From: Enterobacteria phage CUS-3
Direction: 5' to 3' (one strand)
Sequence record: FN394993.1
DNA: 2,827 nucleotides
Below are positions 1 to 2,827 of the stretch, one piece after another; the first letter of the stretch is position 1, and each line of letters opens with the position of its first letter. A model generated the notes under the pieces. That model was not told where the DNA came from. It made no database searches and saw only the letters and a program-made list of their open reading frames with translations. A program made the translations under genes and the position numbers.

Positions 1-438
1 ATGGCGCGCCCAACAAAGTATCAAGAGGCGTATGCCGAACAGGCACGCAAACTGTGCTTGCTGGGCTACACCGATGCAGAGCTTGCTGATTTCTTCGAAG
101 TCAGTGAGTCAACTATTAACAAGTGGAAGCTTGATTATCCTGAGTTTTCGGAGTCCATAAAAAAGGGTAAGGCCGTCGCTGATGCAGAAGTTAGTGACCG
201 TCTTTATCAACGCGCTATGGGCTTCGTGGCTCCAGACATCGATATTCGTGTTATTGAAAACAGAATTGTCGAAACTCCGCTTGAGAAGTATTACCCGCCT
301 GATACAACTGCCGCCATCTTCTGGCTTAAGAACCGACAGAAGGATAAATGGCGCGACAAGGTTGATCACGAGCTAACAGGCAAAGACGGCGGCGCAATTC
401 AGATTGAAACATCACCGATGAGCACTCTGTTCGGAAAA
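1..438 (+). CDS. Phage terminase small subunit (DNA-packaging protein), N-terminal ~146 aa; 3' end and stop codon hidden in the N-run
   Basis: ATG at position 1, frame 1 open through 438 (MARPTKYQEAYAEQARKLCLLGYTDAELADFFEVSESTINKWKL...AIFWLKNRQKDKWRDKVDHELTGKDGGAIQIETSPMSTLFGK). N-terminal helix-turn-helix-like segment followed by a basic K/R/W-rich stretch is typical of small terminase subunits; the C-terminal tail resembles what I recall of Sf6/P22-like TerS proteins. Upstream RBS cannot be assessed because the window begins at the start codon. Family assignment is by recall, not search. Confidence 0.65.
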
Positions 439-538
439 NNNNNNNNNNNNNNNNNNNNNNNNNNNNNNNNNNNNNNNNNNNNNNNNNNNNNNNNNNNNNN
501 NNNNNNNNNNNNNNNNNNNNNNNNNNNNNNNNNNNNNN
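439..538. other. Run of exactly 100 N (masked sequence or unknown-size scaffold gap)
   Basis: Direct observation. Last readable base is 438, first readable base after it is 539. Length 100 is not a multiple of 3 and the reading frame changes across it (frame 1 before, frame 2 after). Confidence 0.99.
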
Positions 539-1762
539 TCTGAGCCATGTGTAAAATATTATGATGGCATTCTGTATCTGACGACCAGGGGGACATTAAG
601 TACTCAACCCGGTAGTTCATTGCACAGAAGCTCTGATTTAGGTACATCATGGAATTCTCTTCGCTTCCCAAATAATGTTCATCACTCAAACCTTCCTTTT
701 GCCAAAGTTGGCGATGAGCTGATTATTTTTGGCAGTGAGCGCGCATTTGGTGAGTGGGAAGGAGGAGAACCTGATAACCGTTATGCAGGAAACTATCCAA
801 GAACATTTATGACCAGAGTTAACGTCAATGAGTGGAGTCTGGATAATGTAGAGTGGGTTAATGTTACTGATCAGATTTATCAGGGCGGAATAGTTAACTC
901 TGCGGTTGGTGTTGGTTCAGTTTGTATCAAAGACAACTGGCTGTACTACATTTTCGGTGGGGAAGACTTTCTAAACCCATGGAGCATAGGGGATAACAAC
1001 AGAAAATATCCTTATGTTCACGATGGTCACNNNNNNNNNNNNNNNNNNNNNNNNNNNNNNNNNNNNNNNNNNNNNNNNNNNNNNNNNNNNNNNNNNNNNN
1101 NNNNNNNNNNNNNNNNNNNNNNNNNNNNNNNNNNNNNNNNNNNNNNNNNNNNNNNNNNNNNNNNNNNNNNNNNNNNNNNNNNNNNNNNNNNNNNNNNNNN
1201 NNNNNNNNNNNNNNNNNNNNNNNNNNNNNNNNNNNNNNNNNNNNNNNNNNNNNNNNNNNNNNNNNNNNNNNNNNNNNNNNNNNNNNNNNNNNNNNNNNNN
1301 NNNNNNNNNNNNNNNNNNNNNAGCGGCGGTGAAACAACGTCTTCAGCAGATGGTGCAATGATAACGTTGCATGGTTCCGGAAGCAGTACTCCACGTCGCG
1401 CGGTATATAACGCACTCGAACATCTTTTTGAGAACGGAGATGTTAAACCTTATCTTGATAATGTAAATGCTCTTGGTGGTCCGGGAAACAGGTTCTCGAT
1501 AGTTTATCTTGGCTCCAATCCTGTGGTTACCAGTGACGGAACATTAAAGACAGAGCCGGTCTCTCCTGACGAAACATTGCTGGATGCCTGGGGTGACGTC
1601 AGGTATATCGCTTATAAATGGCTGAACGCTGTCGCTATAAAGGGGGAAGAAGGGGCGAGGATACATCATGGTGTAATCGCGCAGCAACTTCGTGATGTTC
1701 TTATTTCTCACGGACTCATGGAAGAAGAAAGCACAACATGCCGCTATGCCTTTCTTTGCTAT
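539..1762 (+). CDS. Tailspike / tail fibre protein, endosialidase-type, internal-to-C-terminal portion (partial at both ends; 1031-1321 masked)
   Basis: Frame 2 is open with no stop across 539-1030 (164 codons) and 1322-1762 (147 codons); the intervening N-run is 291 nt (97 codons), so the frame is preserved. First segment: ...YYDGILYLTTRGTLSTQPGSSLHRSSDLGTSWNSLRFPNN...GSVCIKDNWLYYIFGGEDFLNPWSIGDNNRKYPYVHDGH with an Asp-box-like motif. Second segment: ...SIVYLGSNPVVTS/DGTLKTEPVSPDETLLDAWGDVRYIAYKWLNAVAIKGEEGARIHHGVIAQQLRDVLISHGLMEEESTTCRYAFLCY, matching the C-terminal intramolecular chaperone domain (peptidase S74 type) of endosialidases and related tail fibres. Not in the supplied ORF track because it has no stop inside readable sequence. 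Confidence 0.8.
629..652 (+). other. Asp-box (bacterial neuraminidase repeat) motif SSDLGTSW within the tailspike
   Basis: Codons agc tct gat tta ggt aca tca tgg in frame 2 encode S-S-D-L-G-T-S-W, a close variant of the S-x-D-x-G-x-T-W Asp-box found in sialidase beta-propellers. Confidence 0.6.
1031..1321. other. Run of 291 N inside the tailspike reading frame
   Basis: Direct observation. Length is a multiple of 3 and the frame-2 ORF is continuous in phase across it, consistent with length-preserving masking of real coding sequence. Confidence 0.99.
1532..1762 (+). other. Predicted Ser-Asp autoproteolytic site (1532-1537) and start of the C-terminal intramolecular chaperone domain of the tailspike
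   Basis: agt gac at 1532-1537 encodes the S-D dipeptide in the context PVVTS/DGTLKTEP, followed by LLDAWGDVRYIAYKW...HHGVIAQQLRDVL...CRYAFLCY. In K1F endosialidase and related fibres the chaperone domain is released by cleavage at a conserved Ser-Asp. The domain continues into the next N-run. Confidence 0.65.
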
Positions 1763-2179
1763 NNNNNNNNNNNNNNNNNNNNNNNNNNNNNNNNNNNNNN
1801 NNNNNNNNNNNNNNNNNNNNNNNNNNNNNNNNNNNNNNNNNNNNNNNNNNNNNNNNNNNNNNNNNNNNNNNNNNNNNNNNNNNNNNNNNNNNNNNNNNNN
1901 NNNNNNNNNNNNNNNNNNNNNNNNNNNNNNNNNNNNNNNNNNNNNNNNNNNNNNNNNNNNNNNNNNNNNNNNNNNNNNNNNNNNNNNNNNNNNNNNNNNN
2001 NNNNNNNNNNNNNNNNNNNNNNNNNNNNNNNNNNNNNNNNNNNNNNNNNNNNNNNNNNNNNNNNNNNNNNNNNNNNNNNNNNNNNNNNNNNNNNNNNNNN
2101 NNNNNNNNNNNNNNNNNNNNNNNNNNNNNNNNNNNNNNNNNNNNNNNNNNNNNNNNNNNNNNNNNNNNNNNNNNNNNNN
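1763..2179. other. Run of 417 N covering the tailspike 3' end, the intergenic region and probably the 5' end of the acetyltransferase gene
   Basis: Direct observation. Length is a multiple of 3. Only about 76 aa of the chaperone domain are readable before it, so the tailspike stop must lie inside this run. Confidence 0.99.
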
Positions 2180-2827
2180 ATGTCGTTTTCCGTTGATGAT
2201 AATGGATCAGGTAATATTTTTGTATGTGGAGATCTTGTAAATAGCAAAGAGAATAAAGTTCAGTTCAATGGAAACAATAACAAACTTATTATAGAAGATG
2301 ATGTTGAGTGTCGATGGCTTACCGTAATATTTAGGGGTGATAATAATTACGTAAGAATACATAAAAACAGTAAGATTAAAGGTGATATTGTCGCAACAAA
2401 AGGTTCAAAAGTTATTATCGGTAGAAGAACGACAATAGGTGCAGGTTTTGAAGTCGTCACTGATAAGTGCAATGTTACAATTGGCCATGACTGCATGATA
2501 GCAAGAGATGTTATTTTGCGTGCATCAGATGGGCATCCTATATTTGATATTCATAGCAAAAAAAGGATTAATTGGGCAAAAGATATCATTATATCTAGTT
2601 ACGTATGGGTAGGGAGAAATGTCTCTATAATGAAAGGGGTATCTGTTGGAAGCGGATCTGTCATTGGGTATGGGAGTATTGTAACTAAAGATGTGCCATC
2701 TATGTGTGCAGCAGCCGGTAATCCAGCAAAAATAATAAAAAGAAATATAATATGGGCAAGAACGGATAAAGCGGAGCTAATTAGTGATGACAAGAGATGC
2801 TCCAGCTATCATGCGAAGCTCACGCAA
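2180..2827 (+). CDS. neuO: Hexapeptide-repeat (left-handed beta-helix) O-acetyltransferase, NeuO-like polysialic acid O-acetyltransferase candidate; partial (runs off the 3' window edge, 5' end possibly masked)
   Basis: Frame 2 open for 216 codons from the ATG at 2180 to the window end with no stop: MSFSVDDNGSGNIFVCGDLV...KVIIGRRTTIGAGFEVVTDKCNVTIGHDCMIARDVILRASDGHPIFD...YVWVGRNVSIMKGVSVGSGSVIGYGSIVTKDVPSMCAAAGNPAKIIK.... Imperfect [LIV]-G-x-x-x-x hexapeptide repeats across ~2411-2740 are characteristic of sugar O-acetyltransferases. The neuO symbol rests on context (directly downstream of an endosialidase-type tailspike, same strand, AT-rich), as I recall for CUS-3; the generic family call is firm (~0.85), the specific symbol less so. 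Confidence 0.6.
   Translation, partial: MSFSVDDNGSGNIFVCGDLVNSKENKVQFNGNNNKLIIEDDVECRWLTVIFRGDNNYVRIHKNSKIKGDIVATKGSKVIIGRRTTIGAGFEVVTDKCNVTIGHDCMIARDVILRASDGHPIFDIHSKKRINWAKDIIISSYVWVGRNVSIMKGVSVGSGSVIGYGSIVTKDVPSMCAAAGNPAKIIKRNIIWARTDKAELISDDKRCSSYHAKLTQ

Follow-up and report, generated by a model that had tools for sequence, protein, structure and literature searches.

The lic genes of Haemophilus, which contain tetranucleotide repeats, and the repeat-containing opa genes of Neisseria are simple-sequence contingency loci that carry their repeats inside the coding region. The neuO gene of prophage CUS-3, encoding a polysialic acid O-acetyltransferase, resembles both in that slipped-strand mispairing of a repeat in its 5' coding region switches translation on and off. 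Phase variation of neuO via its AAGACTC tract is already known, with descriptions dating back to 2005 and a new survey in 2026, and the present analysis adds no new biology to it. The tract changes in length by slipped-strand mispairing, natural isolates contain 2-93 copies of the unit, and the RLKTQDS heptads raise the catalytic efficiency of NeuO linearly (PMC3046976). The 2026 survey counted 3-53 repeats in 64 complete genomes, with 65.6% off, and fragment analysis of strain MS7163 showed 93% of the cells with 21 repeats, 1.9% with 20 and 5.4% with 22 (PMC13001214).

The window, i.e. the whole stretch of 2,827 nt analysed here, ends in a gene that the original prediction had named neuO. This assignment stands, since the gene shares 99.5% DNA identity with neuO of CUS-3 and its protein is nearly identical to PDB entry 3JQY ('Polysialic acid O-acetyltransferase', E = 1.6e-142). 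Residues 2-216 of the window protein align with residues 30-244 of the 3JQY chain, with nearly all of the 215 aligned residues identical, and the Pfam Hexapep family is matched with 42.5 bits against a cut-off of 27. For the NeuO crystal construct, which contains four heptads, an offset of +28 from the heptad-free variant has been described (PMC3046976), and the pairing of window residue 2 with residue 30 of 3JQY fits this offset to heptad-free numbering. The stop codon of neuO, TAA, is located just past the end of the window. The gene lies immediately 3' of the endosialidase tailspike gene siaK1 in a P22-like prophage, and the gene order in APEC O1, IHE3034 and FDAARGOS_1295 is tailspike, neuO, intS.

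Layout and provenance of the record

By its sequence, the window is identified as an INSDC record in which prophage CUS-3 of an E. coli K1 isolate was typed. A series of 18 GenBank records (FN394218 and FN394986-FN395002), all of 2827 nt, matches the window at identical coordinates under the title 'Enterobacteria phage CUS-3 partial proviral terminase gene, siaK1 gene and neuO gene, genotype GT_x'. Each record of the series consists of a terminase fragment, two siaK1 fragments and neuO, joined by N runs. The sister record FN394998.1 lists the terminase small subunit at 1-438, siaK1 at 539-1030 and 1322-1762, and neuO at 2180->2827, the neuO CDS being annotated as 5'-complete at 2180. Between this record and the window there are only 9 differences, every one of them within the terminase fragment.

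The complete CUS-3 genome of strain RS218 (CP000711) served as reference for mapping (Table 1). The siaK1 and neuO fragments of the window are collinear with CP000711 4013-1592, and the fragment at 1..438, which has no Pfam match, is annotated as terminase small subunit both in FN394998.1 and in CP000711. The second siaK1 fragment (1322..1762) matches the Pfam families End_tail_spike and Peptidase_S74. Terminase and siaK1 are about 18.25 kb apart in the real prophage (18,254 nt) versus 100 N in the window, which is a concatenation and not a contiguous locus.

Because N stretches occupy 439-538, 1031-1321 and 1763-2179 in FN394998.1 just as in the window, the N runs are placeholders inserted by the depositors and not a mask. 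Some collections do mask stretches as N, and a 7-nt array is a typical target of a masker, so that the runs could in principle reflect a low-complexity or repeat mask laid by a pipeline over real sequence that contains the tract. Such masking has almost no probability, however, since the N runs are already present in the deposited sister record, the other two runs replace either unique siaK1 coding sequence (291 nt) or 18 kb shrunk to 100 N, and the homologous 417 nt in front of neuO are free of tandem repeats.

Different parts of the window have identical counterparts in different records of the series. Terminase and siaK1 fragment 1 are identical to those of FN394989, FN394992, FN394994 and FN394995, siaK1 fragment 2 is identical to that of FN394988 and FN394998, and neuO to that of FN394992 and FN394994-FN395000. 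No compared record of the series is identical to the window over all three regions (terminase plus siaK1 fragment 1, siaK1 fragment 2, and neuO). This pattern points to a further, distinct genotype of the series, possibly of recombinant origin.

Table 1. Features of the window and their counterparts in the CUS-3 reference genome
Feature	Position	Strand	Basis
Terminase small subunit fragment (CDS without stop codon)	1..438	+	98.6% identical to CP000711 22705-22268
100-N spacer, arbitrary	439..538	.	Represents 18,254 nt of prophage; flanks map to CP000711 22268 and 4013
siaK1 endosialidase tailspike, beta-propeller fragment	539..1030	+	100% identical to CP000711 4013-3522; Pfam End_beta_propel, E = 1.6e-104
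291-N placeholder, unsequenced siaK1 interior	1031..1321	.	Exact reference length: CP000711 3521-3231 = 291 nt
siaK1 fragment, end of catalytic/stalk part and start of C-terminal chaperone domain	1322..1762	+	99.8% identical to CP000711 3230-2790
N placeholder, deduced content: last 264 nt of siaK1 (87 codons and TAA at 2024-2026)	1763..2026	+	Window frame continued into the CP000711 interval
N placeholder, deduced content: 153-nt siaK1-neuO intergenic spacer, AT-rich, 27.5% GC	2027..2179	+	Homology
True neuO start codon	2180..2182	+	Spacing of 417 nt from the siaK1 fragment, shared with CP000711 and 10 other loci
Proposed editorial junction; poly-psi VNTR TT(AAGACTC)n-1AAGAC taken out	2182..2183	+	Homologue comparison
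neuO body, left-handed beta-helix (hexapeptide-repeat) polysialic acid O-acetyltransferase	2183..2827	+	99.5% identical to CP000711 2236-1592

The N run in front of neuO and the omitted tract

The N run upstream of neuO is unbroken, and its 417 positions equal the spacing in CP000711 between the siaK1 fragment, which ends at 2790, and the neuO ATG at 2372-2370. The same distance of 417 nt between the siaK1 anchor and the neuO ATG, with 0-1 mismatches, was found in 11/11 natural loci, namely CP000711, seven IMG/VR contigs and the chromosomes of APEC O1, IHE3034 and FDAARGOS_1295. The content of the run was deduced from homologues whose flanks are 99-100% identical to the window. When the reading frame of the window is continued into the CP000711 interval, a stop codon is reached at nt 262-264 of the interval, in agreement with the annotation of siaK1 as ending at 2526, and the 87 codons under the N run belong to the C-terminal chaperone region. 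The N run would represent these last 264 nt of siaK1 including the stop codon, followed by the 153-nt spacer with a promoter-like site and a ribosome-binding site for neuO. The original prediction had placed three elements under the N run, and the homologues bear out two of them, the tailspike stop and the intergenic spacer. The third, the entire 5' region of the acetyltransferase, finds no place there: the 417 N are fully used by 264 nt of siaK1 and 153 nt of intergenic DNA, and the repeat region, whose place would be between 2182 and 2183, is missing from the record altogether.

The spacer of CP000711 contains a sigma-70-like, promoter-like site (ATGACA-17-TAAAAT, 2417-2389), a consensus match only, with agreement at 10/12 positions plus a TG extension; its window equivalents are 2135-2140 for the -35 hexamer and 2158-2163 for the extended -10. 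Just before the neuO ATG, the spacer ends with TAGGATACTAATATG in the homologous loci, and the CP000711 bases directly preceding the ATG are ...TAGGATACTAAT. The homologues contain an in-frame TAG 12 nt 5' of the ATG (window equivalent 2168-2170) and an AGGA at Shine-Dalgarno distance (2169-2172), with no alternative start codon between the TAG and the ATG in these loci. Tandem Repeats Finder, applied to CP000711 1500-2850, reported nothing in the 417-nt interval and a single array, the heptamer at 2235-2367. The homologous interval thus shows no tandem repeat but an AGGA, a unique start codon and an in-frame stop closely upstream of it, and each of these observations contradicts a phase-variable tract within the masked stretch.

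Taken as a whole, the explanation that 1763-2179 is a length-exact placeholder for ordinary, non-repetitive DNA, that the ATG at 2180 is the true start and that the tract has been omitted from the record is regarded as highly probable. The original prediction had instead supposed that the N run would hide the real neuO start together with the AAGACTC tract, and that the ATG at 2180 may be a methionine codon within the gene, 3' of the tract. This would agree with the N run abutting the ATG, with the lack of AAGACTC in the readable sequence and with the location of the tract in the 5' coding region of natural alleles. It is nevertheless very improbable, as the N run has exactly the length of the repeat-free reference interval in all 11 loci, the homologous interval ends with the in-frame TAG 12 nt before the ATG, and the sister CDS is 5'-complete at 2180. 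In addition, natural genomes have no ATG in front of TCGTTTTCC. Because the last repeat unit (...AAGAC TCG), and not an ATG, precedes this sequence, an internal methionine at the position of 2180 does not exist in nature.

The ATG at 2180-2182, which opens a 216-codon frame reaching the end of the window, is by its spacing and upstream signals identified as the genuine start codon of neuO. The tract belongs two bases downstream of this codon, outside the 3' edge of the N run. Natural neuO genes begin with ATG-TT-(AAGACTC)n-GTTTTCC, and all natural homologues examined have their repeats two nucleotides 3' of the start codon. In CP000711, the start reads ATG TT (AAGACTC)19 GTTTTCCGTTGATG, annotated as 'poly(psi) domain; 19 copies of heptanucleotide repeat AAGACTC'. 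The tract is followed in natural loci by TCGTTTTCCGTTGATGATAA, which corresponds to window positions 2183-2202. The window itself reads ATG TCG TTT TCC GTT GAT G, where TCG takes its TC from the 3' end of the final repeat unit, and the record presents start codon and gene body as contiguous (...ACTAATATGTCGTTTTCC...). The earlier statement that no AAGACTC is present in the readable window proved correct: the unit is absent from both strands, Tandem Repeats Finder with a minimum score of 30 detects no repeats, and a search across the window for two consecutive AAGACTC units, allowing up to 3 mismatches, gives 0 matches.

All 18 typing records align to the window from 2180, and the complete phage genomes (CP000711 and phiv205-1) from 2183 only. 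Because the complete genomes match the window only from 2183, the tract was removed at the 2182/2183 junction. The junction-spanning 25-mer ACTAATATGTCGTTTTCCGTTGATG has 0 matches in IMG/VR and in the 185,579 species genomes of GTDB. A 303-nt query around the junction finds matches in 176 complete E. coli genomes, and in an even sample of the E. coli ranking all full-length matches (53/53) are split in two at the junction. The ATG|TCG junction, and with it the MSFSV N-terminus, does not appear to be natural.

A source strain with a naturally repeat-less neuO, in which ATG-TCG is real contiguous sequence, would fit the frame rule, since n = 0 is divisible by 3, and activity has been reported for NeuO lacking heptads (PMC3046976). 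Such a strain is nonetheless hardly to be expected. Loss of all units would leave ATGTTGTTTTCC (MLFSV) and not ATGTCGTTTTCC, the window having ATGTCG (MSFSV); the junction string is missing from IMG/VR and from the GTDB species genomes, and none of the 53 sampled full-length E. coli matches is contiguous. Moreover, the junction is identical in all 18 sister records of different strains, against the 2-93 copies reported for natural isolates (PMC3046976). A natural zero-repeat allele was rejected on the difference between ATGTCG and ATGTTG and on the occurrence of the junction in no collection.

With a repeat-less allele set aside, the window is best described as a database 'neuO+0' representation, in which the tract is omitted just after the ATG. 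From the sequence layout of the record, we infer that the depositors left out the hypervariable heptanucleotide tract on purpose, and the record for this reason displays a repeat-free ATG|TCG TTT TCC. The copy number and the on/off state of the source isolate are not encoded in the record. This calls for caution in data handling, because the N are depositor placeholders at reference spacing and the tract has been silently removed after the start codon; the record can for these reasons show neither an on/off state, nor a copy number, nor a 'repeat-less' allele, and is unusable for inferring any of them.

Repeat number, reading frame and atypical alleles

When ATGTT(AAGACTC)n is rebuilt on the window's own gene with n = 0-12, the full ORF is obtained only at n = 0, 3, 6, 9 and 12, and every n that is not a multiple of 3 leads to a stop after 7-45 codons. 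Natural alleles follow the same rule. The ORF from the ATG comprises 307 aa in APEC O1 (39 copies), where it is annotated as acetyltransferase, and 258 aa in locus L009 (18 copies); it is truncated in RS218 (19 copies), IHE3034 (13), FDAARGOS_1295 (49), locus L005 (32) and EC28 (53). In the homologues as in the rebuilt window gene, a full-length NeuO requires n to be a multiple of three, which agrees with what the original prediction had stated about the natural 5' end of neuO. In living cells, the tract length changes by slipped-strand mispairing, a mechanism taken from the literature; full-length NeuO is translated only at multiples of three, and every three units add one RLKTQDS heptad to the N-terminus.

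The comparison of copy numbers across isolates, which had been proposed as a check, gives n = 5-53 in about 90 complete E. coli genomes. The extra match length is a multiple of 7 nt in 40/40 and 51/53 complete E. coli genome matches, with n = 10-49 in the top-ranked list (40 matches) and n = 5-53 in the evenly sampled list (51 matches). The copy number varies between isolates in one-unit steps, and the gene is in phase in 9/40 matches of the top-ranked and 19/51 of the evenly sampled list. Whether RefSeq has an acyl/acetyltransferase CDS under the match corresponds to the phase in 40/40 and 50/51 cases, respectively. As a proxy for the phase-on state, an 'acyltransferase under the match' in RefSeq is right in 90/91 cases; it was rejected, as it fails at EC28, where PGAP calls an internal-start ORF in spite of 53 copies.

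Off-phase neuO genes are represented in RefSeq as a shorter, intact 'acyltransferase' of 111 aa or 202 aa with internal start codons. Examples are found in IHE3034 (locus L011, 1724-2059), EC28 (L015, 1264-1872) and FDAARGOS_1295 (L012, 1976-2311). The RefSeq annotation hides the phase state, because such off-phase alleles are marked neither as frameshifted nor as phase-variable.

Some alleles depart from a uniform array. The IMG/VR contig IMGVR_UViG_2537562173_000011 (locus L003, 2040-2145, minus strand) contains 15 units, including variant units in a 42-nt higher-order pattern: [AAGACTC x3, AAGCCTC, AAGACTC, AAGTCTC] x2, then AAGACTC x3. It is in frame with an ORF of 251 aa, and it is the sole IMG/VR contig with this variant string. 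Because slippage by the 42-nt unit would keep the frame, the allele may change in length without being switched off. That the source isolate of the window had an atypical tract of this kind, e.g., an interrupted or 42-nt higher-order array, and that this was perhaps the reason for its omission, is very improbable; if true, such an array would mostly remain in frame, with variation affecting its length alone.

In NZ_CP160121.1 (locus L014, 851-1080), the tract of 225 nt is not a multiple of 7 and consists of 12 units, 22 irregular nt and 17 units. The gene is in frame from the ATG (291 aa), and PGAP calls it an incomplete pseudogene; either a genuine interrupted allele or a misassembly could account for the tract. 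In strain HH97 (NZ_CP116409.1, locus L016, 851-1611), neuO has 24 units, one of them the variant AAGACTA, and is in phase by count. Its ORF is cut short at 77 aa by an additional frameshift in the gene body. A gene that is in phase by count is not necessarily intact.

A CUS-3-like prophage without neuO is present in E. coli T309.Ta3 (NZ_CP128255.1, locus L018, 2579-2589), with the order tailspike, intS, tRNA-Arg. Its sequence corresponds to CP000711 5022-2434 followed by 1591-1, the two matches overlapping by 11 nt. The 11-nt string TAAATATAAAA is found on both sides of neuO in CUS-3; its left copy is inside the N run, at about window 2108-2118, and its right copy starts with the neuO stop codon just past 2827. 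The neuO segment missing from T309.Ta3 is delimited precisely by the two copies of TAAATATAAAA, which suggests that neuO and its promoter-like site form a discrete cassette with short direct repeats at either end. In 19/176 E. coli genomes, the match to the 303-nt junction query is confined to its upstream part. Strain M21816 (NZ_CP133923.1, locus L017, 2501-2907) contains an endosialidase-tailspike prophage remnant that adjoins ybhB and bioA. Its deletion differs from that of T309.Ta3: the sequence equivalent to CP000711 2411-1562, comprising neuO and its 5' region, is gone, and the left breakpoint is located directly after the promoter-like -35 hexamer.

Comparison with described systems

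The closest described system is the poly-psi contingency locus of CUS-3 itself (Deszo et al. 2005; King et al. 2007; CP000711), which contains the same gene with 99.5% DNA identity. The window shares with this locus the upstream siaK1, the spacing of 417 nt to the start codon and the sequence right after the tract, and differs from it in that the record omits the tract itself. The MSFSVDD N-terminus of the window protein corresponds to the heptad-free numbering of the engineered NeuO+0/NeuO+12 constructs (Bergfeld et al. 2007; Schulz et al. 2011, PDB 3JQY). While these are laboratory constructs, the repeat-free form in the window is only a database representation of natural alleles.

In comparison with the Haemophilus lic and Neisseria opa genes, neuO is distinguished by its 7-nt unit and by the location of the locus on a phage. 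A further difference is that in-phase neuO alleles also vary in the length of their product, with one RLKTQDS heptad per three units, which is reported to raise catalytic efficiency (PMC3046976).
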